A stretch of 64,000 bases of DNA from an uncultured bacterium. Lineage in GTDB: Bacteria > Patescibacteriota > Patescibacteriia > Magasanikbacterales > GWA2-37-8. The notes under the pieces are model-generated. The model made no database searches and was not told the origin of the DNA. It saw only the letters and a program-made list of their open reading frames with translations. Positions 3,369-54,552 of the stretch are shown in pieces (positions within the stretch are counted from its first letter, which is position 1; every line of letters starts with the position of its first letter). The position numbers were made by a program, and so were the translations under genes. The stretch covers positions 70,680 through 134,679 of the forward strand of contig CALCZC010000028.1 in NCBI GenBank assembly GCA_937903605.1. Reading direction: 5' to 3'.

Positions 3369-3977
3369 TTAAAGTTCTTCCAAAAATTTATTTAAGTGAG
3401 TTAGAGTATCTGATTTTTGATTTACTTTTAAAGCGTTGCCCCCCAATCTAGAAAACACTTCGCAAGTATTTGCCGAATCTTCAATTAAATAAGCATCTGA
3501 TATTTTGCTGTTAAAAGATGTTAAAGAATCAATAAATTGTTTTCCGTTATCATCTGTTTTCAACATGCCGGTGTCATAAGAATTAATCACATGATCAAAT
3601 AATTTATCTAATTTTAAAGAGGGGACAGTAAAACGACTAAAACAATCCATATTGCCGGTAATAAGAACAGCATGATGTTTTTTTCTTAATTTTTGGATTA
3701 TTTCAATTGTTTTATTATCTACTTTCATTTTTTGGCAATCTGAGACAAACGATTCCCAAACTTCCTTTTCAGGTAAGTTGGCCCTCTCGCTTAATAATTT
3801 ATTAATTTCCTCCGAAGTATGTTTGCCTCGCATCCAATTTTTTATCATTTCTTTTTCCGTAACAAAAAAATCGGCCACAACCTGAGAAAATGTGGGGTTT
3901 TTTGCGCTTAAAGTTTCCCAGAAACGGGAAAAACAAAGCGTGCCGTCCCAATCTATAAAAACTACTTTTCTTTTCAT
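3369..3977 (-). CDS. HAD-superfamily hydrolase-like protein
   Basis: N-terminal FIDWDGTL (DxDGT motif I of HAD hydrolases). 202 aa. Confidence 0.65.
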   Translation of the reverse strand: MKRKVVFIDWDGTLCFSRFWETLSAKNPTFSQVVADFFVTEKEMIKNWMRGKHTSEEINKLLSERANLPEKEVWESFVSDCQKMKVDNKTIEIIQKLRKKHHAVLITGNMDCFSRFTVPSLKLDKLFDHVINSYDTGMLKTDDNGKQFIDSLTSFNSKISDAYLIEDSANTCEVFSRLGGNALKVNQKSDTLTHLNKFLEEL

Positions 3978-6361: not shown

Positions 6362-6403
6362 TGTCCATTGTCATTCCTGCGAAAAAAGGAATAACAAGAT
6401 TTG

Positions 6404-14749: not shown

Positions 14750-14850
14750 AGTAAGTTAATAATTGTTTTAAATGTTAATAATTGTTCTAGATGTTTTAAA
14801 AAACAAGTGAAGCGATAAAACAATTAGAACAAGCGCTTTAGCGCGATAAA
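14750..14850. repeat. R1 dispersed intergenic repeat (TTGTTCTAGATGTT ... AACAAGTGAAGCGATAAAA ... CAATTAGAACAAGCGCTTTAGCGCGATAAA)
   Basis: Same motifs recur at 23822-23975, 24361-24415 and, inverted, at 49008-49095. Confidence 0.55.
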
Positions 14851-20833: not shown

Positions 20834-20888
20834 GTCCCGTAGGGACACCAAAGTTTTGACTTTTGACATTTGAGTTTTGAGTTTGACC
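20834..20888. repeat. R2 repeat (GTCCCGtagGGGAC hairpin plus CACCAAAGTTTTGACTTTTGA...)
   Basis: Inverted homolog at 31214-31268. Preceded by an ATCTCAAA x3 tandem at 20765-20800. Confidence 0.55.
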
Positions 20889-22796: not shown

Positions 22797-23828
22797 ATGC
22801 AAGAAAAATTGCAACAATTGAAAAACCAAGCTTTACCCGCGATTGCCAGTAGCAAAAATGAAGCGGAGCTTACGGATTTGGAAAATAAATATTTAGGTCG
22901 CAAAAACGGCGAACTGACCGAATTTATGAAGGGTCTCAAAGACCTAAATCCCGAAGAAAAGAAAAATGCCGGCCAACTACTCAATGAAATCAAAAAAGAA
23001 TTGGAAGAAGCTATAAATAAAAAAAGAGAAGAGCTCAGTAATGCCGGTTTTGCCCAAGCTATTGCTGGAGAAAAAGCGGATTTGAGTCAACCTTATTTAC
23101 CCAAAAAAGAAAGAGGGCATTTGCACCCCAATTCTATCGTGCAAAAAGAATTGGAAGATTTGTTTACCTCTATGGGTTTTATGGTGCTTGACGGACCGGA
23201 ACTAGAAAGTGATTATTACAATTTTGAAGCGATAAATATTCCTGCCACCCATCCGGCCAGAGAAAGTCAGGATACTTTTTATATCAAAAATCATGAAAAC
23301 TGGTTGGTGCGTACTCACACCTCTTCCAATCAAGTTCGTGCTATGGAAAAATATGGCGCGCCTTTGAAAATGATTACTCCAGGTCGTTGTTTTCGTAATG
23401 AAGCCACAGACGCCAGACACGAACATACTTTTTATCAATTGGAAGGTGTGGTGGTGGACAAAGATATTAATTTTGGTCACATGAAAGCGGTTTTGGAAAC
23501 CGTAGCGCAAAAATTATTTGGACCGGAGATCAAAGTTCGTTTGCGTCCGAAATTTTATCCGTTCGTTGAACCTGGGGTAAATGGAGAAGTGACTTGTTTG
23601 CTCTGTGGTGGTAAAGGATGCAATGTTTGTAAACATACCGGTTGGATGGAAATTTTTGGCGCTGGCATGATTCACCCTAACGTATTGCGAGCCGGCGGTC
23701 TTGATCCGCAAATTTATAGTGGTTTTGCTTTTGGTTTTGGTTTAACTCGTTTGGTGATGCTCAAATACGGGATAGATGATGTGAGATTATTACAGAGTGG
23801 AGACCTACGATTTGTGAGACAGTTCTAG
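22797..23828 (+). CDS. pheS: phenylalanine--tRNA ligase alpha subunit
   Basis: Class II aaRS motifs FRNEATDARHEHTFYQLEG and GAGMIHPNVL. 343 aa. Confidence 0.9.
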   Translation: MQEKLQQLKNQALPAIASSKNEAELTDLENKYLGRKNGELTEFMKGLKDLNPEEKKNAGQLLNEIKKELEEAINKKREELSNAGFAQAIAGEKADLSQPYLPKKERGHLHPNSIVQKELEDLFTSMGFMVLDGPELESDYYNFEAINIPATHPARESQDTFYIKNHENWLVRTHTSSNQVRAMEKYGAPLKMITPGRCFRNEATDARHEHTFYQLEGVVVDKDINFGHMKAVLETVAQKLFGPEIKVRLRPKFYPFVEPGVNGEVTCLLCGGKGCNVCKHTGWMEIFGAGMIHPNVLRAGGLDPQIYSGFAFGFGLTRLVMLKYGIDDVRLLQSGDLRFVRQF

Positions 23829-23975
23829 ATGTTGTAAATGTTCTAGGTGTTATAGATGTTGTAAATGTTCTAGATGTTCTAGATGTTATAGATTATCAAT
23901 TACAACAAGCGCTTTAGCGCGATAAAACAAACATAGTGGTAGAACAATTATAACAAGGGCTTTAGCCTGATAAAT
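23822..23975. repeat. R1 repeat block: tandem 12-18-mers (GTTCTAGATGTT / GTAAATGTT) then ACAACAAGCGCTTTAGCGCGATAAAA and TAGAACAATTATAACAAGGGCTTTAGCCTGATAAATT
   Basis: Direct reading. Left flank of the four-helix-bundle gene. Confidence 0.6.
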
Positions 23976-23987
23976 TATTTAATAAAT

Positions 23988-24359
23988 ATGGGAGGGTTAA
24001 ATTTTAGCTATCAAAATCTTGAAGTTACTATTTTAGCAAAAAAATTAATAAAAGAAATTTATTTTTTTACAAAAAACTTTCCAGCATCTGAAATTTACGG
24101 ACTTACAAACCAGTTAAGAAGAGCGGTAATATCAGTAGCTTTAAACATCGCAGAAGGAAGTAGTAAAAAAAGTTTTACAGATTTTAATAGGTATGTAAGA
24201 ATTGCAATAGGTTCTTTGGTAGAAGTCAATTGTGCTTTGGAAATATCTATAGAATTAGGGTATTTAAAAACAGAAGATTATGAAAAGATAAAATTAGATG
24301 TTCAGCCTCTTTATTTCAAATTAGTATCTTTATCAAAATATTTAACAAACAAGATTTAA
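23988..24359 (+). CDS. four-helix-bundle protein (23S rRNA intervening-sequence protein family)
   Basis: LTNQLRRAVISVALNIAEGSSKKSFTDFNRYVRIAIGSLVEVNCALEISIELGYL matches the conserved QLRRAAISIxSNIAEG...AxGSxxExxTxLxIA pattern of this family. 123 aa. Sits between pheS and pheT. Confidence 0.75.
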   Translation: MGGLNFSYQNLEVTILAKKLIKEIYFFTKNFPASEIYGLTNQLRRAVISVALNIAEGSSKKSFTDFNRYVRIAIGSLVEVNCALEISIELGYLKTEDYEKIKLDVQPLYFKLVSLSKYLTNKI

Positions 24360-24360
24360 A

Positions 24361-24415
24361 AATAACAAGCGCTTTAGCGCGATAAATCAATTAGAACAAG
24401 CGAAAAGCGATATAA
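24361..24415. repeat. R1 repeat (AACAAGCGCTTTAGCGCGATAAATCAATTAGAACAAGCGAAAAGCGATATAA), right flank of the four-helix-bundle gene
   Basis: Direct reading. Same core as 14821-14850 and 23903-23926. Confidence 0.6.
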
Positions 24416-30700: not shown

Positions 30701-31214
30701 AATTATTGAATTCGCCAAGAAAAAAATTACGCGTAGCGGTAAAACTATGATGTTTGCAACTATTGGCGATTTGACCGATAAATTGGAGCTTTTGATTTTC
30801 CCAAAAACTTACGAAACCACCAAGGATGTTTGGGTAGAAGGAAGAAATGTTTGTGTGATAGGGCGTACCAGCGAAGAAGAAGGGGATAATAAATTGTTTG
30901 TGGAAAAAGCATATGAGATAACACCGGAAAATTATATGGAGCTTACACAACAATTGGCAATGGGTAAAGAGCTTGGTTCTTCAAACGAAGAAAATAGTTT
31001 AAGAGAAGAAAGTATTACTTTGATTTTAAGTCTTGCGCAAGTCAAAGAAAAAGCCGATGTTATAAAAAGTATTTTGGCTAAATATCCGGGCGATATGCAG
31101 GTTTATCTTCGTGTCGGAGATAAGACGATAAAGACGCAATATCAAATAACATTTGACGATAATCTTAAAAAAGAGTTGGAAGATTTGTTGGGAGAGGGGA
31201 AGATAGTTATATAA
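27744..31214 (+). CDS. dnaE: DNA polymerase III alpha subunit (GTG start)
   Basis: PHP domain start SFTHLHVHSHYSLLDGL. Polymerase core and OB fold. 1156 aa. Confidence 0.9.
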   Translation: MSFTHLHVHSHYSLLDGLPKIKELVKTAKKRGFSALALTDHGNMYGAIEFYEACLKEEIKPIIGMEGYIASGSRFEKNPQDKYFHILLLAENYTGYRNLMKLSSLAHTEGFYYKPRMDKELLRQYSEGLICSTACMGGEIPRILHKENNYEKAKATALEYDEIFGRGNFFLELLDVPALEGQAEVNNQLIQISKETGIPLIVTRDVHYLNPEDAEAQDTLTCIRDGKTLEDTDRNTMVGMDFSLCEEKEIATRFKHVPEAIENTGKIAQRVNLVLELNKWHFPPIELPPGKTADEYLRDEVYTRLPKLIEFTDTVKERADYELGIIAKKGYSPYFIAVAEYVNYARENGIMETTRGSGAGSIVSYAMGITTVNPLFFKLPFERFLNPYRPSPPDIDADFADDRRDEMIAYVTKKYGEDKVAQIITFGTMMARGAIRDVGRALGYAYSFCDQVAKLIPAGAQGFQVTIAKALELEPDLKDLYNKNAQVKRLLDLAQKIEGCARHTSIHAAGVVISPTPLTDFTPVQRETGGERIVTQYEMHTVEAAGVLKMDFLGIRNLSILGRAVEIIEKTAGVKIDVFNIPWDDKKTYEMLARGETVGVFQLSSSGMTRYLKELKPSSIFDIMAMVALFRPGPMAVIPDYIARKQNPDLIKYLDPRMESYLDQSLGLIVYQDDVLLTAINLAGYNWEEADKFRKAMGKKIPEEMEKQKEKFFKGCKEVGKLKPELIEELWHLIEPFAAYGFNKAHAASYAVVAYQTAYLKANYPIQYMTAILIAESGDMDKVPEVIHECEKMGIKVLPPDVNQSFKSFAMITPDDGSTPYIRFGLNGVKNLGEHIAEVIYRTRKDGGKYQTLEDFIKRVNDKDLNKKSLEALIKCGALDAFGYDRGVLLNNIENLLNFIKQNNEQNNSNQNSLFAGSSIGFSNKIKIKDAPPATKEEMLKWEKELLGVYVTAHPFEFYAKKMEKCLTPIKELTNLGKKQWVVIGGIIEFAKKKITRSGKTMMFATIGDLTDKLELLIFPKTYETTKDVWVEGRNVCVIGRTSEEEGDNKLFVEKAYEITPENYMELTQQLAMGKELGSSNEENSLREESITLILSLAQVKEKADVIKSILAKYPGDMQVYLRVGDKTIKTQYQITFDDNLKKELEDLLGEGKIVI

Positions 31215-31268
31215 CTCAAAAGTCAAAACTCAAAAGTCAAAACTTTGGTGTCCCGATAAATCGGGACG
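31214..31268. repeat. R2 repeat, inverted copy of 20834-20888 (CTCAAAAGTCAAAACTCAAAAGTCAAAACTTTGGTGTCCCGataaatCGGGAC)
   Basis: Reverse complement aligns to gtcccgtagggacaccaaagttttgacttttga. Confidence 0.55.
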
Positions 31269-33239: not shown

Positions 33240-33509
33240 TCAATTTAAATACTTTTTGCTTCGAAGAGTTTTTTCCAGTTGAATTTTTAATTCATTGTGA
33301 CCTTTACCGCCTTTAAAAAATAATTCGCGTTTTTTTGCATCATCCCTACTTAAGTATGCTTCGTAATAAATCAATTTCAAAGGTCTTCGAAATTTTGTTG
33401 CTTTTACTAAACCGTTGGAATGGTTTAAATACCTTTGCTTTAAATTATTTGTATAACCAATATACAATTTTTTGTCTTTTTGACTGTATAATATATAAAC
33501 GTAAAACAT
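33240..33509 (-). CDS. GIY-YIG nuclease superfamily protein (UPF0213-like)
   Basis: MFYVYILYSQKDKKLYIGYTNNLKQRYLNHSNG: GIY...YIG spacing plus R and N residues. 89 aa. Confidence 0.8.
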   Translation of the reverse strand: MFYVYILYSQKDKKLYIGYTNNLKQRYLNHSNGLVKATKFRRPLKLIYYEAYLSRDDAKKRELFFKGGKGHNELKIQLEKTLRSKKYLN

Positions 33510-33526: not shown

Positions 33527-33649
33527 GGACGCTAAGCGTCCTTTTAAGATTACGTTAATTTAATTGTGGAGTGGGACGCTAAGCGTCCCTATTACAACGC
33601 TCAGCTTAGAGTGGGACGCTAAGCGTCCCGAATACGACGCTAAGCGTCG
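33527..33649. repeat. cluster of four palindromic hairpins GGGACGCTAAGCGTCCC between tRNA-Met and the GIY-YIG gene
   Basis: Copies at 33527-33541, 33573-33589, 33613-33629 and 33636-33649 (GACGCTAAGCGTCG). Confidence 0.6.
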
Positions 33650-45488: not shown

Positions 45489-46256
45489 ACACATTGCATC
45501 TTTTAAGTCGTAGTCGCCAATTTTAGTTCGTTTTAGTTCTTGGCAATAGGCCCTGGTATTCAATTTTTTTCCAATATCTTCCGCCAGAGTACGGATATAT
45601 GTTCCGGGGGAACAGGTGACGGTTATTTTTAAAACAGGATATTGATAACCCAAAATTTGTAAGTCAAATATTTCAATCTTGTTTGCTTTTCTTTTTATCT
45701 TTTTTCCTAAGCGCGCCAGTTTATAAAGTCGTTGCCCGTCTATCTTTTTAGCGGAAAACATTGGGGGAATCTGGTTTTGAGAGCCGATAAATTTTATCAG
45801 AATTTTTTCTATTTCAAGTTTTGAAGGAACATAAGGATGGATACTGGATATTGGATACTGGATATTATTTGAAAATATTTTTAATATCCAATATTTAATA
45901 TCCAATATTATTTTTTTGAGGGAACTTAATTTAAAAGGTGTGATAACCCCTGTTTTATCCCCAGTGTTTGAAACTTCACCCAACTTTATCGTCGCTTCAT
46001 AAGTTTTCGGCAGATTTTTGAAGTTTTCAATTTCTCGTGTAGCTTCGCGTCCGATTGCGACAATGAGCAATCCGGTGGCAAAAGGATCCAGCGTCCCGGC
46101 ATGTCCCACACGCGGTTTTTTAACTTCCGGATTTTGTTGGCGAAATATTTTTCGGATATATCCAACCACATCAAAACTGGTCCAGCCTTCGGGCTTGTTA
46201 ATTAGTAAAAAAGTATTTGATTCAAGTTTGAAATTGTTTTTAGTAATTATATTCAT
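45450..46256 (-). CDS. truB: tRNA pseudouridine(55) synthase TruB (no PUA domain) carrying an in-frame palindromic insertion
   Basis: Catalytic HAGTLDPFATGLL. FIGSQNQIPPMFSAKKIDGQRLYKLAR. 268 aa. Confidence 0.85.
   Translation of the reverse strand: MNIITKNNFKLESNTFLLINKPEGWTSFDVVGYIRKIFRQQNPEVKKPRVGHAGTLDPFATGLLIVAIGREATREIENFKNLPKTYEATIKLGEVSNTGDKTGVITPFKLSSLKKIILDIKYWILKIFSNNIQYPISSIHPYVPSKLEIEKILIKFIGSQNQIPPMFSAKKIDGQRLYKLARLGKKIKRKANKIEIFDLQILGYQYPVLKITVTCSPGTYIRTLAEDIGKKLNTRAYCQELKRTKIGDYDLKDAMCLTSVLRPQATKN
45841..45915. repeat. R3 palindromic element inside truB, 75 bp (25 codons, encodes IILDIKYWILKIFSNNIQYPISSIH)
   Basis: atactggatattggatactggatatt-atttgaaaatattttt-aatatccaatatttaatatccaatatt. 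Arms are reverse complements. Reading frame is maintained. Confidence 0.6.
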
Positions 46257-46376
46257 ATTGCTTGTATTGTATCATTCGTGCAGATTCGTGTAAAAAATCG
46301 TGTTTTCTGTTTTGTCTTTTTTCATTTATCTATATATTTGTGCAGATTAGTGCAAAGATTCGTGTTTTCTAAAACA

Positions 46377-46410: not shown

Positions 46411-46734
46411 CTATTTTCGGCGACTTGTTTCCGGCTTGTCTTTGAGTACCGGTAATTTATAACCGGAGTTGACAAAGAGCTGGGCAGCCAGATGTCGCGG
46501 AATAGTCGTGTAGTCAAGTACTCCCACTACTCCCGCCTGTCTTTCCATGATGGAGGTAATGCGATAAGGAACGGGGCTAAGCCGAAGGGTTTTGGCCGCC
46601 GTCTCAACCGCTTCTCTGGAAAGAAAGACGACTTCCTCCCTGCCTTTGAAGCGAATCACTTCTGCTCCCTTGAGCTTTTTACCAGTGATGGGACAACAGC
46701 CTTGTTTTTCAAGGGCTTTGATCAATTCATCCAT
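46411..46734 (-). CDS. hypothetical protein, possibly L7Ae/YlxQ-like RNA-binding protein; GC-rich codon usage
   Basis: RBS AGGTGA before the ATG. Loose pattern match to YlxQ/L7Ae (KALEKQG...GKKLKGAEV...VVFLSREA...VPY...GVVGVLD). An overlapping antisense ORF and high GC mean an RNA alternative is not excluded. Confidence 0.4.
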   Translation of the reverse strand: MDELIKALEKQGCCPITGKKLKGAEVIRFKGREEVVFLSREAVETAAKTLRLSPVPYRITSIMERQAGVVGVLDYTTIPRHLAAQLFVNSGYKLPVLKDKPETSRRK

Positions 46735-48995: not shown

Positions 48996-49007
48996 GAAGT
49001 TTTAACT

Positions 49008-49095
49008 GTTTTATCGCGCTAAAGCGCTTGATATAAATGATTTATCACTTCGTTTGTTTATATAACATTTAGAACAATTATAACATTTAACAACT
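49008..49095. repeat. R1 repeat, inverted orientation (TTATCGCGCTAAAGCGCTTG ... ATTTATCACTTCGTTTGTT ... TAGAACAATTATAACA)
   Basis: Reverse complement of CAAGCGCTTTAGCGCGATAA and AACAAACGAAGTGATAAAT; compare 14802-14850. Confidence 0.55.
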
Positions 49096-49423: not shown

Positions 49424-49434
49424 AATTACAAAAT

Positions 49435-49513
49435 GTCATCCCCGCGAAGGCGGGGATCCAGGAAAATTAAGATAGCCACTGGATTCCTCCGCCAAAGGCG
49501 GACGGGAATGACA
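49435..49513 (+). ncRNA. R5 structured element, copy 1 (three hairpins closed by a terminal GTCATCC/GGAATGAC stem); candidate small RNA or structured repeat
   Basis: gtcatccccgcgaaggcggggatccaggaaaattaagatagccactggattcctccgccaaaggcggacgggaatgaca. Followed by terminator AAACCCACTagttAGTGGGTTTTTTG at 49518-49545. Confidence 0.4.
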
Positions 49514-49562
49514 GTAGAAACCCACTAGTTAGTGGGTTTTTTGTTTTATTATCATATATCTT

Positions 49563-49580
49563 TATATTGATATCAATATA
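49563..49580. promoter_or_regulatory. 18-bp perfect palindrome TATATTGATATCAATATA (GATATC core) at the left edge of the R-M locus
   Basis: Direct reading. Related TTGATA/GATATC palindromes cluster at 52957-53080. Confidence 0.4.
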
Positions 49581-49833
49581 ATCATAGTAAAAAAAGTGTA
49601 ATTTTTGGTGGAATAAGGGATTAGATTAAACAGTTTTTTGTGTCAATGTTTGTTCAAAAATTAGGTAACCGTGTTTATCTAGTTAAAATCTGGTCGAGTT
49701 GGTTTATTTTTGGTAAAAATTTTTGGAGAGCCTATTTTTAAGCGTAATGGTTGTTGTTACAGGGGTTTATCCACTTGTTTTTCAATTATATATCATGTAT
49801 ACTAAAATTATCGTTATCATTTGAAAACGCGCT

Positions 49834-52014
49834 ATGAAAAAAAAGCAAAAAACAACAACTAAATTCGACGTAGAAAAAGATGTTGAGCTATCCGACTTAA
49901 CTAAAGAAATTCTTAGCAATGAAATTTCAAAGTTTGACGAGTACCAGGCTTGGAAAAATTTTTTTGTCAGATATATCGATCCAGATGTTGTTCATAGAAA
50001 AAAAGATATAAAGGAGTTTGAAAGAAAATTAGGCGCTGATTTTTTTGAAATTCTTTATACAATTCATTTAATAGTTTATTTAGTTGCCAATAAATTTATT
50101 ATCCAAATACAAGTACCCGATAAATTTAATGTTTCGGAAGTTATATTTGAAAATGTTTTTAAAAATTTTTCTGAAGAATCTAAAAATAAGATTGATAAAA
50201 AAATTGGCGATTTATTTATACAATTGTGTAAAGAAAATCTACACGCATATGATCTATTCGAAAATATTTATAGAACTATTTCTCCAAGAGAGATAAGAAA
50301 ACCTTTGGGTGAATATTTTACCCCCCTTTCACTTGCAGAAAAAATGGTTTCCGAAGTGGATAAAAAATATTCTGATGAAAGATGGCTAGACAACTCAAGC
50401 GGATTCGGTGTATTCTTATTTGCATATCTTGATAAATTTGGAATTAAAAATATTGAAAAATTTAGTTGCATAGATGTAAATCCGCTATCTGTTTATGTAA
50501 CCAAGGTAGCTATTTTACTAGAGTACAGGACACAATTAAATAAAATAGCTGACCTTAAAATTTATTGGGGCGATGTTCTCTTAAACGAAAGATATGAGTT
50601 TAGAGATGGGAAAATATTGGTATCAGGTAATTTTTCTGAACTTCAAAGTAATGTTGGGGTTGTGATTGGCAACCCTCCATGGGTGAGCTGGAAATCAATG
50701 ACCAAAGAATATCAAAAACTGATTGGGGATGATTGGAGAAGTTACGATATTTTTGAGAAAAATATTACAAGAAAAACACTAGGGGCTTGTAATGATGATT
50801 TGTCAAGCTATTTTGTTTATTTCTCTATAGACAAATTTTTAAAAAAACAAGGATTACTTAAGTATGTGATAAATCTCTCTTTGTTCAAGAGTAATTTAGC
50901 AGGAAAAGAATTTAGAAAATTTAATATTCAAAAAACCAACACTCCTTTCAGAATTGAAAAAATTTATGATCTTTCAAATTATAAAGTTTTTCCCGGCATA
51001 GCCAATTCATACTGTGTTTTTGATGCGACCAAAGGCGAGAAAACAATTTTTCCAGTACCTTACTCAATCATTAATGGTAAAAAAGGCAAAGAAATAGAAA
51101 GCACTATAGAAACTGGCGCTCGACCAGTAAACAATCAAGACAATGGCGCTTTGATAACAATAAACGGCAACGACCAGCAGTTCGATTCTATTGAGGGAAT
51201 TTGTGAATACAAAGCACGGGCCGGCGTGTGTACTTGGCTCAACAGTGTTTATTGGATTAGAAAAATTGAGGATGCTGGTGAATTAACTTTGGTATCCAAC
51301 CTCGGGACTATAGGTAAAAAGAAAGTAGCAGAAATAGAGAATAAAATTGAAAAAGATCTAATATTTCGCTTATTAAGAGCAAGGAATCTTAATGATTTTA
51401 ACCCGGTAATTGAAAATTATATTATTGTTCCCCAACAAAAAGATGAAATGTCAAAGCCTATTGATGAAAAAGAAATGAAGGCAAAATATAAAAATACTTT
51501 TGTATTCTTTAAAAATTTCGAAAACGAATTAATAGAAAGAAGTGGCTATAAAAAGTTTTTAAAAGGACAGCCTTTTTATGGTCTTTATAATATTGGTCCG
51601 TATACAACTGCGCCCATAAAACTTGGTTGGCAGTTCGTATCTAAAAAATTTCAAGTTTATTTAATTGATAATGCGGAAGACATAATACCGGACCTAAATG
51701 TGATGTTTATCCCTCTAGAAGATATAAATGAGGCCTATTATTTGCATGCTCTTTTGAACTCTAAATATGCTACGAAAAAAATTGAATCAAGCTCTAACTG
51801 GACATTTCCAAGTGGGTCAATACAAAAAATATATTTAGAAAAATATAATTCTAAAGATGATCTTCACACTAGTATATCGTCATTACAGCAGAAGATTTTA
51901 TCTCAAAAAATAATCGGATTAGAAGAAGAAATGGAGAAACTATTTAAGGAATATTGGTTCAATGGGAGAAAAAAGAAGCGTGAAATTACCCAAATTCAAT
52001 TATCGTTTGTATAA
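49834..52014 (+). CDS. N6-adenine DNA methyltransferase, gamma class (Eco57I/TaqI-like) with a large target-recognition region
   Basis: Motif order X then IV: GEYFTPLSLAEKMV upstream of VIGNPPWVSW (NPPW catalytic motif IV), then a long TRD. 726 aa. Confidence 0.8.
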   Translation: MKKKQKTTTKFDVEKDVELSDLTKEILSNEISKFDEYQAWKNFFVRYIDPDVVHRKKDIKEFERKLGADFFEILYTIHLIVYLVANKFIIQIQVPDKFNVSEVIFENVFKNFSEESKNKIDKKIGDLFIQLCKENLHAYDLFENIYRTISPREIRKPLGEYFTPLSLAEKMVSEVDKKYSDERWLDNSSGFGVFLFAYLDKFGIKNIEKFSCIDVNPLSVYVTKVAILLEYRTQLNKIADLKIYWGDVLLNERYEFRDGKILVSGNFSELQSNVGVVIGNPPWVSWKSMTKEYQKLIGDDWRSYDIFEKNITRKTLGACNDDLSSYFVYFSIDKFLKKQGLLKYVINLSLFKSNLAGKEFRKFNIQKTNTPFRIEKIYDLSNYKVFPGIANSYCVFDATKGEKTIFPVPYSIINGKKGKEIESTIETGARPVNNQDNGALITINGNDQQFDSIEGICEYKARAGVCTWLNSVYWIRKIEDAGELTLVSNLGTIGKKKVAEIENKIEKDLIFRLLRARNLNDFNPVIENYIIVPQQKDEMSKPIDEKEMKAKYKNTFVFFKNFENELIERSGYKKFLKGQPFYGLYNIGPYTTAPIKLGWQFVSKKFQVYLIDNAEDIIPDLNVMFIPLEDINEAYYLHALLNSKYATKKIESSSNWTFPSGSIQKIYLEKYNSKDDLHTSISSLQQKILSQKIIGLEEEMEKLFKEYWFNGRKKKREITQIQLSFV

Positions 52015-52511
52015 ACCTCTTCGCCGTTTGTTTTTGCCCATTTTATAGTAAAACCCACGTGAGAAATATCGTTTGAACTGATTGATAATTGACGCTCGGT
52101 TTCTTTTAAAATATTTTCAGTTGGAACCTTATAAATTACTTTTATATCTAAAGGAGCTTCTTGTTTAAATACAGCACAATAAAAACAACTGTTTCTACTA
52201 ATTCTTAGTAGGGATTTTTTTTTCTTCTCTTCTGGACTTTTGAACATTCTGTCTAATTGAAAAGTTCCATTTTCCCAACAAGACAAATATTCATACAAGT
52301 TGCTAGGATTTTTTGGGTCCCAGGCGTCCGCTTCATGTTTTGTGGTATGGACTTCATGACCAAGGGCTGAGCCGATAATCAGTTCTTTGACTAGTCCTGG
52401 TTGGAATAAATTAGCATAACCCAAACCAGAAGCAATTTTTTGCGCCTCTTTTACAAGTGAGACAATTTGTTTTAATTTCTCTTGTTTTGTTTTGGTATCT
52501 ATTTTACTCAT
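51996..52511 (-). CDS. putative Type II restriction endonuclease (downstream of, and overlapping, the C-protein gene)
   Basis: Genomic context only: 4-bp overlap with the controller-like HTH gene and convergent with the MTase. Acidic/Lys residues (EADAWDPKN...E...K) are compatible with PD-(D/E)xK but no motif is secure. Confidence 0.45.
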   Translation of the reverse strand: MSKIDTKTKQEKLKQIVSLVKEAQKIASGLGYANLFQPGLVKELIIGSALGHEVHTTKHEADAWDPKNPSNLYEYLSCWENGTFQLDRMFKSPEEKKKKSLLRISRNSCFYCAVFKQEAPLDIKVIYKVPTENILKETERQLSISSNDISHVGFTIKWAKTNGEEVYTNDN

Positions 52512-52735
52512 AATTCTTTCATTAGTTTATCGATCTCAATTTTTAGTGCTTTGCTGATTTTTTCGATATTTTTTAAGGTTATATTTTTTTCTGCACGCTC
52601 AATCATGCCGATATATGTTCTGTGAACACCCGCTCGATTAGCTAATTCTTCTTGAGACAAACCTAACTCAGCACGTCTTTTGCGCAATTGTTGACCAAAT
52701 TTAATTAAGATTTCGGTCTTCATAAGAATAATCAT
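52508..52735 (-). CDS. XRE-family HTH protein, likely R-M controller (C) protein
   Basis: LRKRRAELGLSQEELANRAGVHRTYIGMIERAEKNITLKNIEKISKALKIE. 75 aa. Translationally coupled to the downstream ORF. Confidence 0.7.
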   Translation of the reverse strand: MIILMKTEILIKFGQQLRKRRAELGLSQEELANRAGVHRTYIGMIERAEKNITLKNIEKISKALKIEIDKLMKEL

Positions 52736-52956
52736 AGTATATCAATCTGCTAATTCTAGTTCTACATACTATAGTTAGCATATACAACTTTAATAATTTT
52801 AGGAAGCTTCTAATATTTTTTATGTTAGGAGGTGCGGGACGGGGGATCTGGTTAAATGGCGCTTTGCGCCAATTTTTTGAATAAAAATTATTTAACCGGG
52901 TAAACTTATCCACACCCCCTATTTTGTAGTTTTTGGAATTTCTGTGTTATTATTAA

Positions 52957-53080
52957 ACTATCAATCTATATATTGATAGTTATAAAAAGCTATTTATAAG
53001 TTGATATCTACAAATAACTATTTAAAAATTGATAGGTATAAATAGATATCTATAAATAACTATCATTATATTGATATTTT
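52957..53080. promoter_or_regulatory. cluster of operator-like palindromes and iterons (AACTATCAATctatatATTGATAGTT; GTTGATATCTAC; ATAGATATCTAT; ATAACTAT repeats)
   Basis: Direct reading. Upstream of the 53092 HTH gene and between the C-R operon and the surface-protein array. Confidence 0.45.
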
Positions 53081-53091
53081 AACGTATTTGT

Positions 53092-53304
53092 GTGAAAGTG
53101 GACGCAAAAAAATTCAGCGCCAATCTCAAGCGCTTGCGCTTGGGTAGGGGAATGTCCCAGGAGATGTTGGCGCGCAATGCGGATTTACGGCTTTCCAATT
53201 TAGCAAAATTGGAGGGTGGTTTTAACGTTAATCCGACTTTGCAAACATTATCGTCACTGGCACATGTTTTGACCGGGGACAGTATAGACAGGCTTTTACA
53301 ATAA
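53092..53304 (+). CDS. small XRE-family HTH regulator (GTG start)
   Basis: LKRLRLGRGMSQEMLARNADLRLSNLAKLE is a Cro/C1-type HTH. 70 aa. No clear RBS. Confidence 0.5.
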   Translation: MKVDAKKFSANLKRLRLGRGMSQEMLARNADLRLSNLAKLEGGFNVNPTLQTLSSLAHVLTGDSIDRLLQ

Positions 53305-53454
53305 AAGTGAAAATTATTAATTATTGTTTATTGATTATTAATATTTCTTTATTTCTTTCTTTAAGGGAGGGAGAAAGAAGTATTTTAAAATAATCAATAA
53401 ACAAGAGTTAAAAATAAATAAGGATAAATAAACAATAAATAATAAACAATAATT

Positions 53455-54408
53455 ATGTTTATTGGAAAGAAAAAAAATTATTTTTTGATTGGATTGATTG
53501 TACTTGGGACAGTCTTGGTTTTGTTATCCTTAAATTCTAATGCCGCGACCCCTCCTTCTGTAATCAGTTATCAAGGTAAAATTTTGGAAAACGGAGTTTC
53601 AGCTTCCACCTCTTTGACTATGACTTTTGAACTTTTCAATACATCTACCGGAGGATCCGCACTTTATACATATACAGAAGCAATTGTTCCAAGTAGTGGT
53701 TTATTTTCTGTTTTGATAGGAGATAGTTTGATAAATCCACTAGATCCGGAAATTTTCAAAAACAATAGCGAACTTTATTTACAAGTAACAGTCGGTATAG
53801 AAACACTTTATCCACGTAAACGTATTGTTACCGTGCCTTATGCTTTCAATGCTAAATATTTGGACGGATATGGAGTTTCACTTACTCCAACCAATACAAA
53901 TTATATACCGGTAGCCGACAGTGATGGTGGATTTACTTTTGGCAATGTGACGACAACGGGGGATTTATATGTGAGTGGAACGGTGAGAGTAGGTGATATT
54001 TGTAGCAAGGATGGAAGTTTTTGTTTTAATATTGATGAATTAAATATAACAGTCAAAGAGATGCGAACCACTTCGGTTAAATATATAGGCAACGTAACCA
54101 CTACACCTTCTTTGAGAGGTTATCAAGCCGCCAATGCTATTTGTAATGCTTTTTGGAGCGGAAGTCATTTTTGCAAAACCGAGGAAATAATGACAATTAT
54201 AGAAAAACAAAATATAAATTATTTTTCCGGAACAGCTTGGTTGGCAAATGGACCTCCGGGTTATACTGCGCCAGCAAATGATTGTAGCGGTTGGACCAGT
54301 TCTGACGGAAATAGGTATGGTGCAATTTGGCAATTTAATAGCGATGGTGGTGGTAGTGGATATCTAACCACTTGCAACCAACCGCTGCCTTTGGCGTGTT
54401 GTAAATAG
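53455..54408 (+). CDS. membrane-anchored secreted protein carrying the shared Cys-rich C-terminal ...ACCK module (paralog 1, short)
   Basis: TM YFLIGLIVLGTVLVLLSL. C-terminal GYQAANAICNAFWSGSHFC...GPPGYTAPANDCSGWTSSDGNRYGAIWQFNSDGGGSGYLTTCNQPLPLACCK. Confidence 0.6.
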   Translation: MFIGKKKNYFLIGLIVLGTVLVLLSLNSNAATPPSVISYQGKILENGVSASTSLTMTFELFNTSTGGSALYTYTEAIVPSSGLFSVLIGDSLINPLDPEIFKNNSELYLQVTVGIETLYPRKRIVTVPYAFNAKYLDGYGVSLTPTNTNYIPVADSDGGFTFGNVTTTGDLYVSGTVRVGDICSKDGSFCFNIDELNITVKEMRTTSVKYIGNVTTTPSLRGYQAANAICNAFWSGSHFCKTEEIMTIIEKQNINYFSGTAWLANGPPGYTAPANDCSGWTSSDGNRYGAIWQFNSDGGGSGYLTTCNQPLPLACCK

Positions 54409-54479
54409 AAAACACTAATTTGAAAACACGAATTTTTACACTAATCAACACAGATAAACAAAAATAAAAAATACAAAGT

Positions 54480-54552
54480 GTCATCCCTGCGAAAGCAGGG
54501 ATCCAGGAAAAGTTAAACAAGCCACTGGATTCCTGCTTTCACAGGAATGACA
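54480..54552 (+). ncRNA. R5 structured element, copy 2, with compensatory substitutions relative to copy 1
   Basis: gtcatccctgcgaaagcagggatccaggaaaagttaaacaagccactggattcctgctttcacaggaatgaca. The CCCCGC/GCGGGG stem becomes CCCTGC/GCAGGG, and TCCGCC/GGCGGA becomes TCCTG/CAGGA. Confidence 0.4.

Follow-up and report, generated by a model that had tools for sequence, protein, structure and literature searches.

We examined two elements of about 75 nt in a 64,000-nt stretch of DNA (the window) from an uncultured Magasanikbacterales bacterium (GenBank assembly GCA_937903605.1, contig CALCZC010000028.1, positions 70,680 to 134,679) and conclude that they are very probably head-to-head (HH) dimers, with their tags outside, of a DNA hairpin repeat resembling repetitive extragenic palindromes (REPs). 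The repeat would be the one known as CGTC-1, as dRS3 or the Neisseria Transformation Sequence (NTS), and as the Ssn-related motif (SRM). On the same reading the dimers derive, in the manner of a miniature inverted-repeat transposable element (MITE) or a REP doublet forming a hairpin (REPIN), from a cassette in which ssn, the gene of a small GIY-YIG nuclease, lies between two repeat units. The family is already described, and the elements are real and non-random without being a new kind of element. With the T and A bases of the tags included, copy 1 spans 49434-49513 and copy 2 spans 54479-54552. A first-pass annotation of the window had reported two copies here and had judged them to be more than a chance duplication. 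Both points hold, as a degenerate 28-nt pattern for the left part has exactly two matches in the 64 kb, against an expectation of 0.00 from 100 shuffles, and both copies lie far beyond chance. The shared GTCATCC...GGAATGACA ends and ATCCAGG...CCACTGGATTCCT centre that it described are also real. In pairwise alignment the copies are 85% identical, with a single 7-column gap in the right-hand hairpin.

The right part of each element is the reverse complement of its left part, and the pattern GTCATYC-N12-GRATCCAG matches at 49435-49461 and 54480-54506 on the plus strand and at 54525-54551 on the minus strand. Each element is an inverted dimer of a hairpin unit of about 28 nt, with a spacer of 17-18 nt and the tags facing outward. 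The unit runs from a TGTC tag through an 8-bp stem with a 4-nt loop to an ATCCAG tail. Read on its own sense strand, every one of the four units begins with TGTCAT, and three of the four have the 8-bp stem, the 4-nt loop and a tail that fits CCA, the exception being the right unit of copy 1. The left unit of copy 1 (49434-49461, plus strand) has a TGTC tag, the stem ATCCCCGC/GCGGGGAT, the loop GAAG and the tail CCAG, and folds as single-stranded DNA (ssDNA) at -9.7 kcal/mol (z = -3.9). It is followed by the spacer GAAAATTAAGATAGCCA (49462-49478), which recurs unchanged or with 1-3 nt of difference in dozens of metagenome contigs, mostly of low GC content, and then by the inverted right unit (49479-49513, minus strand), an aberrant long form (TGTCATTCC-CG-TCCGCC-TTT-GGCGGA-GGAATCCAG) with a 5+6-bp stem and a 3-nt loop that folds at -8.8 kcal/mol. 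Similar length variants occur in other contigs. Copy 2 consists of the left unit TGTCATCCCTGCGAAAGCAGGGATCCAG (54479-54506, plus strand; -8.6 kcal/mol), the spacer GAAAAGTTAAACAAGCCA (54507-54524) and the inverted right unit TGTCATTCCTGTGAAAGCAGGAATCCAG (54525-54552, minus strand), in which one pair is a T.G wobble when read on the unit's sense strand and a C.A mismatch when read on the plus strand. As single strands, with RNA or DNA parameters and on either strand, copy 1 folds into three hairpins closed by the tags and copy 2 folds best into one long hairpin; all folds of the elements lie far beyond those of shuffles (z = -4.3 to -9.5). Copy 2 stands between a gene for a 317-aa protein and the start codon of a surface-protein gene. 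Logan short-read assemblies of the same organism end inside the left unit of copy 1 (the 3′ ends of L122 and L123, the 5′ ends of L129 and L130), so the unit appears to be repeated in those samples. A profile search of the 64-kb window found no dimer besides the two copies.

The same sequences were classed as "CGTC-tagged REPs" by Di Nocera, De Gregorio & Rocco (2013; BMC Genomics 14:522; PMC3733652). Their CGTC-1 repeats, which are dRS3 in Neisseria and RPE-6 in Rickettsia, have a tag that is often TGTC, an 8-bp stem opening with A-T and T-A, a 4-nt loop and a CCA tail, and occur mostly as HH dimers, the partners of which may fold apart or as one large stem-loop (PMC3733652). CGTC-1 HH dimers and those of the window have the same CGTC/TGTC tag, stem, loop and tail, and likewise have their tags outside, a conserved 17-18-nt spacer and frequent homodimers. 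Copy 1 departs from this as a heterodimer whose right unit is unusually long. The survey was made on complete genomes from five phyla, mostly Alphaproteobacteria and not Patescibacteria, at a time when no associated protein was known. The core ATTCCC-N8-GGGAAT of dRS3 and RPE-6 is shared by the window elements in ATCCCC/ATTCCT variants, and all of these repeats are intergenic and near surface-protein genes, whereas the dimers of the window are isolated and no prophage was seen around them.

Chenal et al. (2025; Nat Commun 16:2388; PMC11893778) described the NTS as CGTCATTCCCGCGMAVGCGGGAATCYRG, a sequence containing the dRS3 repeat, and defined the degenerate SRM. Ssn proteins (CDD cd10448) are small single-domain GIY-YIG proteins that bind hairpins and cut a few nt upstream; nicking 5′ of the tag was demonstrated for Ssn proteins of Neisseria and Wolbachia, the cutting affects ssDNA only, neither double-stranded DNA nor RNA, and ssn genes are typically flanked by the motif (PMC11893778). 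The SRM expression, HGTCWYN(0-2)YYVSBRHN(0-5)WNVSBRGN(0-2)RNCYNB, matches exactly at 49434-49461, the left unit of copy 1. From the NTS this unit differs at three positions, two of them forming a compensating pair, and the right unit of copy 2 (54525-54552) at four; the left unit of copy 2 fails solely at the T-A compensating pair. All four units of the window have the GTC before the palindrome and the C after it, which are the bases most critical for cutting and binding (PMC11893778). The motif is thus the same as that of Chenal et al., and related contigs have ssn genes between such units, although no ssn gene was found in the window. Patescibacteria and REPIN-like doublets are not mentioned in that study, and its transformation-modulating role was shown in Neisseria only, where the repeats number hundreds. 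An integron attC site, a CRISPR repeat and a plain terminator were ruled out as identities, there being no attC core, no array and no T-run; the sole terminator-like match on a unit is on the minus strand and incidental.

Five contigs (L144, L190, L223, L230 and L231) contain a cassette of the form unit -> ssn <- unit, the gene encoding a GIY-YIG protein of about 95-100 aa. The units around ssn in L144, L230 and L231 are exactly of the window's type, the one in L144 and L230 being identical to the left unit of copy 2, and L231 comes from a record named Magasanikbacteria. In the Saccharibacteria contig L106 the order is unit -> ssn unit -> <- unit. The cassette proteins are 53-63% identical to one another and have in common a C-terminal ...REKxxKxW/GxRxxKxxLI...WKDL region, and that of L106 has Y6, Y17 and E64, whose numbers are those of the residues mutated in SsnA. 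At E <= 1e-10 the family of the L144 protein numbers at least 7,948 proteins, most of them on short contigs, and homologues of 69-75% identity are named from Caldiserica, Elusimicrobia, Omnitrophota, Scalindua and Rhizomicrobium. The Ssn-type family is huge and shows unusual conservation across phyla.

Directly inward of their right unit, the cassettes have 8-12 nt that match dimer spacers, the spacer of copy 1 included, at the 3′ end. In L231 the inner right end reads TTTTGACCGCCA before CTGGAT, and dimer spacers end in TTAAGACCGCCA and TTAAGATAGCCA before the same CTGGAT. Because of this match we infer, from sequence comparison, that the dimer is an internal-deletion, non-autonomous form of the unit-ssn-unit cassette, as a MITE is of an insertion sequence (IS) or a REPIN of a REP-associated tyrosine transposase (RAYT). 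As a separate observation, L230 has at 3890-3925, upstream of its intact cassette, a stray fragment made up of an ssn 3′ end (TTTTAATTGCGA) and a right unit, which looks like the remnant of a second cassette after internal deletion.

The REPIN/RAYT system (Bertels & Rainey 2011) follows the same logic, in that an inverted hairpin doublet replicates and a single-copy gene between the same repeats is the presumed mobiliser. It differs in having a GTAG tag where ours is YGTC and an HUH tyrosine transposase in place of a GIY-YIG nuclease, Ssn being a hypothetical mobiliser. The window elements could themselves be classical REPs or REPINs mobilised by a RAYT (an IS200/IS605-type tyrosine transposase), or the MITE of an ordinary DDE insertion sequence, and their architecture is indeed that of a REPIN, with two inverted hairpin units, a short spacer, an intergenic position and a dimer that replicates. 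We consider this highly improbable. The tag is not GTAG, no transposase accompanied CGTC repeats in the survey of Di Nocera et al. (PMC3733652), no RAYT or DDE transposase lies beside any cassette examined, the gene between the units always being the GIY-YIG gene of about 95-100 aa, and no target-site duplications were found at 125 of 132 dimers.

Reference genomes were scanned with a pattern in which tags and tails were fixed and the inner 12 positions of the left unit were free, leaving the stem unconstrained. At least 120 loci match. Among the matches listed there are 131 dimers, from isolates and metagenome-assembled genomes of many phyla (Pseudomonadota, Planctomycetota, Nitrospirota, Chloroflexota, Patescibacteria and others), with Daviesbacteria, Kuenenbacteria, Roizmanbacteria and Saccharibacteria included. 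The spacers of these listed dimers measure 10-32 nt and are not conserved between genomes. In 132 dimers the base ahead of GTCAT is C (77), T (49) or A (6) and never G. Among the reference-genome loci listed, of which there are at least 120, only L106 has a GIY-YIG ORF beside its dimer, so dimers mostly lie far from ssn. A scan of viral contigs with the dimer pattern gave 0 matches.

Across 59 distinct units, 98.7% of the cells of the stem are paired, with changes on both sides at five of the eight pairs; pair 9-18, for example, is CG in 24 units, GC in 19, UA in seven and AU in five. Not one of 500 shuffles reached the observed paired fraction or covariation score, and slid controls were 16-52% paired. 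This family-wide covariation of the stem shows that the unit hairpin is under selection. The first-pass annotation had deduced selection on structure from paired substitutions between the two copies. Its conclusion is borne out by the wider family but was not derivable from two copies. The substitutions in the first hairpin (CCCCGC/GCGGGG against CCCTGC/GCAGGG) are genuine and amount to one C-G to T-A double change. Both variants already exist as separate haplotypes of the family, each present in many other contigs, and the difference between the copies is therefore not compensation in place. The paired substitutions proposed for the third hairpin fall away, as the right-hand hairpins are not positional homologues and their alignment needs the 7-column gap: that of copy 1 is 7 nt longer and built otherwise (ATTCC-TCCGCC-AAA-GGCGGA-CG-GGAAT), and that of copy 2 is a canonical unit with one mismatch (ATTCCTGC-TTTC-ACAGGAAT). 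The outer and central stems are invariant tags and tails joined by the inversion of two units and therefore contain no covariation information.

The two arms of a dimer resemble each other. The loops of the two arms are identical in 53% of cases, against 23.5% in shuffles, and for the commonest stem the figures are 78% and 37%; concordance is also high in metagenome dimers, which are mostly from low-GC contigs. This concordance is inseparable from within-genome homogeneity or shared descent, and gives no basis for choosing between the long hairpin and separate hairpins.

The elements had also been proposed to be a functional RNA, and could be a small RNA (sRNA) gene or a cis-acting element of a 3′ or 5′ untranslated region (UTR) that ends transcripts or makes them more stable, the fold, of three hairpins or one long one, acting as RNA. 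Copy 1 lies between the stop codon of trxA and its terminator, in the trxA 3′UTR, and is almost certainly transcribed, and as RNA both copies fold far better than shuffles (z = -5 to -9.5). At permissive thresholds copy 2 reaches 47.8 bits (E = 2e-9) on the Rfam model RF02625, WsnRNA46 (Wolbachia sRNA 46), which is below the gathering score of 65.3. The consensus of that model, GUGUCAU...GGGAUCCAGAAAA...CUGGAUUCC...AUGACA, has the same tags and tails and is likewise a dimer of the kind found here, shown as a single long hairpin. An NTS-like unit is also part of the Northern probe used for the Francisella sRNA FtrB, and many REPs are, in the view of Di Nocera et al., transcribed (PMC3733652). 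Transcripts of repeats of this kind have so been catalogued as sRNAs, and a side role of the elements as small RNA is compatible with these data.

As an account of what the elements are, we nevertheless think an RNA improbable. WsnRNA46 has longer stems and a larger central region, and with 47.8 bits for copy 2 and just 18.2 for copy 1 the window elements are not members by the Rfam criterion. No Rfam family reaches its gathering score on them, and a scan of the window at gathering thresholds returned four tRNAs and nothing else. Both strands fold equally well. The conserved tag, stem and tail stand on the sense strand of each unit, and the sense strands of the two units run in opposite directions; this suits a reader acting at the DNA level better than a single transcript. 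The gene positions differ, one copy following a stop codon and the other preceding a start codon, with dimers elsewhere in varied contexts, and the loops of orthologues tolerate insertions of 20-25 nt. SsnA of N. meningitidis, the sole homologue assayed on RNA, showed no interaction with it (PMC11893778). A multi-hairpin RNA of about 75 nt thus finds no support as such, and the closest characterised function is one on ssDNA.

Returning to the reading as DNA repeat dimers, we scanned metagenomes with the left unit and just four bases of the spacer as the query, which gave 93 matches. These yield 46 distinct dimer-plus-flank contexts with a canonical 27-nt right unit and, together with copy 2 of the window, a set of 47, mostly on low-GC contigs; copy 1 stands outside the set because its right unit is too long for the 27-nt filter. 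A spacer of the window's type (GAAAA..TTAAGATAGCCA-like) is present in all but four of the 47. Three homodimer haplotypes dominate (11, 9 and 9 contexts), mixed dimers are rare, and the dimers elsewhere lie in gene contexts of all kinds. Since the same dimer recurs in dozens of contexts and is present or absent at orthologous sites, the dimer, spacer included, is what has propagated in this lineage.

The host is a Magasanikbacteria-like patescibacterium, and named sequences reach at best 87% identity to its IF-2. The orthologous sites were compared in relatives whose IF-2 is 93% (L223), 90% (L225) and 87% (L227) identical to that of the window genome, and in the more distant L204. Site 1 is downstream of trxA. 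An orthologous dimer is found there in L223 and L227, displaced in both by extra intergenic modules, and is absent from L225 and L204. Directly 3′ of copy 1, outside the repeat, is the intrinsic-terminator-like hairpin of trxA (49516-49541, plus strand), and the same terminator follows the dimer in L223. The three orthologues keep the tags, stems, tails and spacer, with insertions of 20-25 nt in the loops; the right units of L223 and L227 have loop insertions other than that of copy 1. Stem pair 9-18 is C-G in the window, T.G in L223 and T-A in L227, a series that likewise supports selection on the hairpin. Site 2, between the gene for the 317-aa protein and the first surface-protein gene, contains copy 2 in the window and only a short AT-rich intergenic sequence, with no dimer, in L225 and L227. 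In L223 the same site contains a 99-aa Ssn-type GIY-YIG gene between hairpins of another, TGTC-tagged type (TGTCATTGCGAG...AGCAATCCCAC). The right end of this cassette and that of the window dimer meet the flank AAAAACAAAA(C)TATG at one and the same nucleotide. Being specific to its lineage, copy 2 is relatively recent. In L218, conversely, a dimer occupies an intergenic region where the window has none.

Alongside the transcription of copy 1 and the WsnRNA46 score of copy 2, several observations weigh against the elements being dimers that derive from an Ssn cassette and spread. Ssn is known for cutting DNA and is not known to join it, and no transposition event was observed. We found no Ssn-type gene in the 64 kb of the window or in the 5.6 and 6.6 kb adjoining it, the window being about 30% of the 212-kb contig, and among the best 120 of the at least 7,948 homologues of the L144 protein none lies on a contig of 212,710 nt, the length of the window contig. 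The window's own GIY-YIG gene (33242-33509) was rejected as the source of the cognate enzyme, as its product is 34-42% identical to the Ssn-type proteins, is without the C-terminal ...WKDL region and has another hairpin type beside it. The copy number is low: the 64 kb contain two dimers and one relic, the roughly 12 kb on either side taken together contain just a dimer of a second type, and L225 has no dimer in 22 kb. Target-site duplications are missing, as said above. Wobbles on the sense strand exceed A.C mismatches by 16:8 (p = 0.15), which gives no significant support to strand-specific folding. Lastly, copy 1 has long been inherited vertically and its loops have decayed in relatives, so that the local copies may be inactive.

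These points bear on whether the elements are inert fossils, that is, members of the family which no protein of this genome recognises any longer and which persist since deletion is slow. We regard this as rather unlikely. It would account for the absence of an Ssn-type gene from the roughly 76 kb examined, the low density, the large loop insertions in the orthologues of copy 1, the aberrant right unit of copy 1, the mismatched right unit of copy 2 and the degenerate unit at 6369-6392. That single unit, TGTCATTCCTGCGAAAAAAGGAAT (plus strand; nhmmer E = 0.011-0.03), lies 8 nt past the stop of a 702-aa open reading frame (ORF). However, the orthologues of copy 1 have kept tags, stems, tails and spacer despite the decay of their loops, and their pair 9-18 has changed by way of a wobble intermediate. 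Copy 2 is relatively recent, L223, the relative with 93% IF-2 identity, has an intact ssn cassette at the very same junction, and the gene search took in roughly one third of the 212-kb contig and a much smaller share of the genome.

For dimers that descend from an Ssn cassette, we propose the following mechanism by analogy. When the strand that carries a unit becomes single-stranded, during replication or repair or in DNA that is taken up or transferred, each unit would fold into its hairpin. A small GIY-YIG Ssn nuclease would bind the unit and nick a few nt 5′ of the tag, in the manner of the proteins from Neisseria and Wolbachia, and since the tags face outward there would be two nicks, one on either side, bracketing the dimer. 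The dimer would then be a non-autonomous MITE/REPIN-like cassette that has lost almost all of ssn, and if copy 1 affects the trxA mRNA, or copy 2 the surface-protein gene downstream of it, that would be a secondary effect. A bolder version, which we put forward only tentatively and do not favour, is that the dimer is an active REPIN-like replicator mobilised by Ssn and that unit-ssn-unit is a transposon-like element of a new enzymatic class, moving between phyla and into candidate-phyla-radiation genomes.

Other repeats and hairpins are found in and near the window. The GIY-YIG gene mentioned above (33242-33509, minus strand) encodes an 89-aa single-domain protein (Pfam PF01541, E = 2.8e-15) and is the only GIY-YIG gene of the window by tblastn, as a divergent match of 36-42% identity; between it and a tRNA gene are four hairpins of another kind (33528-33648) with a GACGCTTAGCGTC core found nowhere else in the window, and gene and hairpins may form a separate nuclease/hairpin pair. 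The second-type dimer, also with its tags outside (TGTCATTGCGAGGAGTGTAATGACGAAGCAATCCCAC ... TAATGACA), lies at 16103-16205 of L229, on the same contig and about 2.1-2.2 kb past the left end of the window, between pth and dprA, the latter encoding a DNA-processing protein for incoming ssDNA. The ssn gene of L223 is flanked by the same hairpin type. Beside this dimer, at about 16205-16260 of L229, is a sequence with TTTTGAC words similar to a 42-nt inverted pair of the window (20842-20883 and 31213-31254; 93% complementary; GGGACACCAAAGTTTTGACTTTTGACATTTGAGTTTTGAGTT). At 18195-19576 of L229, past the left end of the window, a reverse transcriptase gene (RVT_1) adjoins a bAvd-type gene, which suggests a diversity-generating retroelement. 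A short repeat with the core CAAGCGCTTTAGCGCGATAAA has five copies in the window, at 14821-14850, 23897-23926, 23945-23974 and 24357-24386 on the plus strand and, inverted, at 49007-49059, just upstream of trxA. Tandem 9-nt units (GTTCTAGAT and GTTGTAAAT variants) occupy 23822-23902, at the end of the ORF 22797-23828.

The surroundings of the dimers vary as well. The 65 nt directly upstream of copy 2 (54409-54473, AAAACACGAATTTTTACACTAATC...) form a 71-75% inverted repeat with 46256-46372, upstream of the gene at 46411-46734, and are wholly unlike the 'TTTATAAAG' word repeats found at the same place in relatives. At 49834-52723 the window has genes for an Eco57I-like methylase/endonuclease (726 aa), a 171-aa protein (minus strand) with a weak, sub-threshold match to PvuII-like endonuclease, and a helix-turn-helix (HTH) protein. 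The Eco57I-like and PvuII-like genes are absent from L225, L227 and L223, where trxA is followed by the HTH gene or one for a 320-aa protein. In L204 leuS comes directly after trxA, and in the window genome it lies about 20 kb further on (L228). Both dimers are inside a variable island between trxA and leuS.

In summary, four points go beyond Di Nocera et al. and Chenal et al., as modest extensions and not as a new kind of system. The repeat and nuclease system now extends to the Patescibacteria (Magasanikbacteria), comparative evidence indicates that the inverted dimer propagates together with its spacer, this spacer has a match at the inside end of ssn cassettes, and one junction holds two different members of the system. 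The dimer looks like a derivative of the ssn cassette by internal deletion, which bears on how CGTC repeats spread. In annotation, such sequences should be labelled as CGTC-tagged or Ssn-related hairpin repeat dimers, neither as novel RNAs nor as spurious small ORFs, and CGTC-tagged dimers explain contig breaks in short-read assemblies. If the dimers are indeed replicators, different members of the system would target the same intergenic nucleotide, where the window has its dimer, L223 a cassette of the other hairpin type and two relatives an empty site. If Ssn acts on incoming ssDNA in the way it does in Neisseria, recombination in these organisms, which are thought to rely on DNA uptake, could be shaped by dimers that lie next to genes for surface proteins and restriction-modification.

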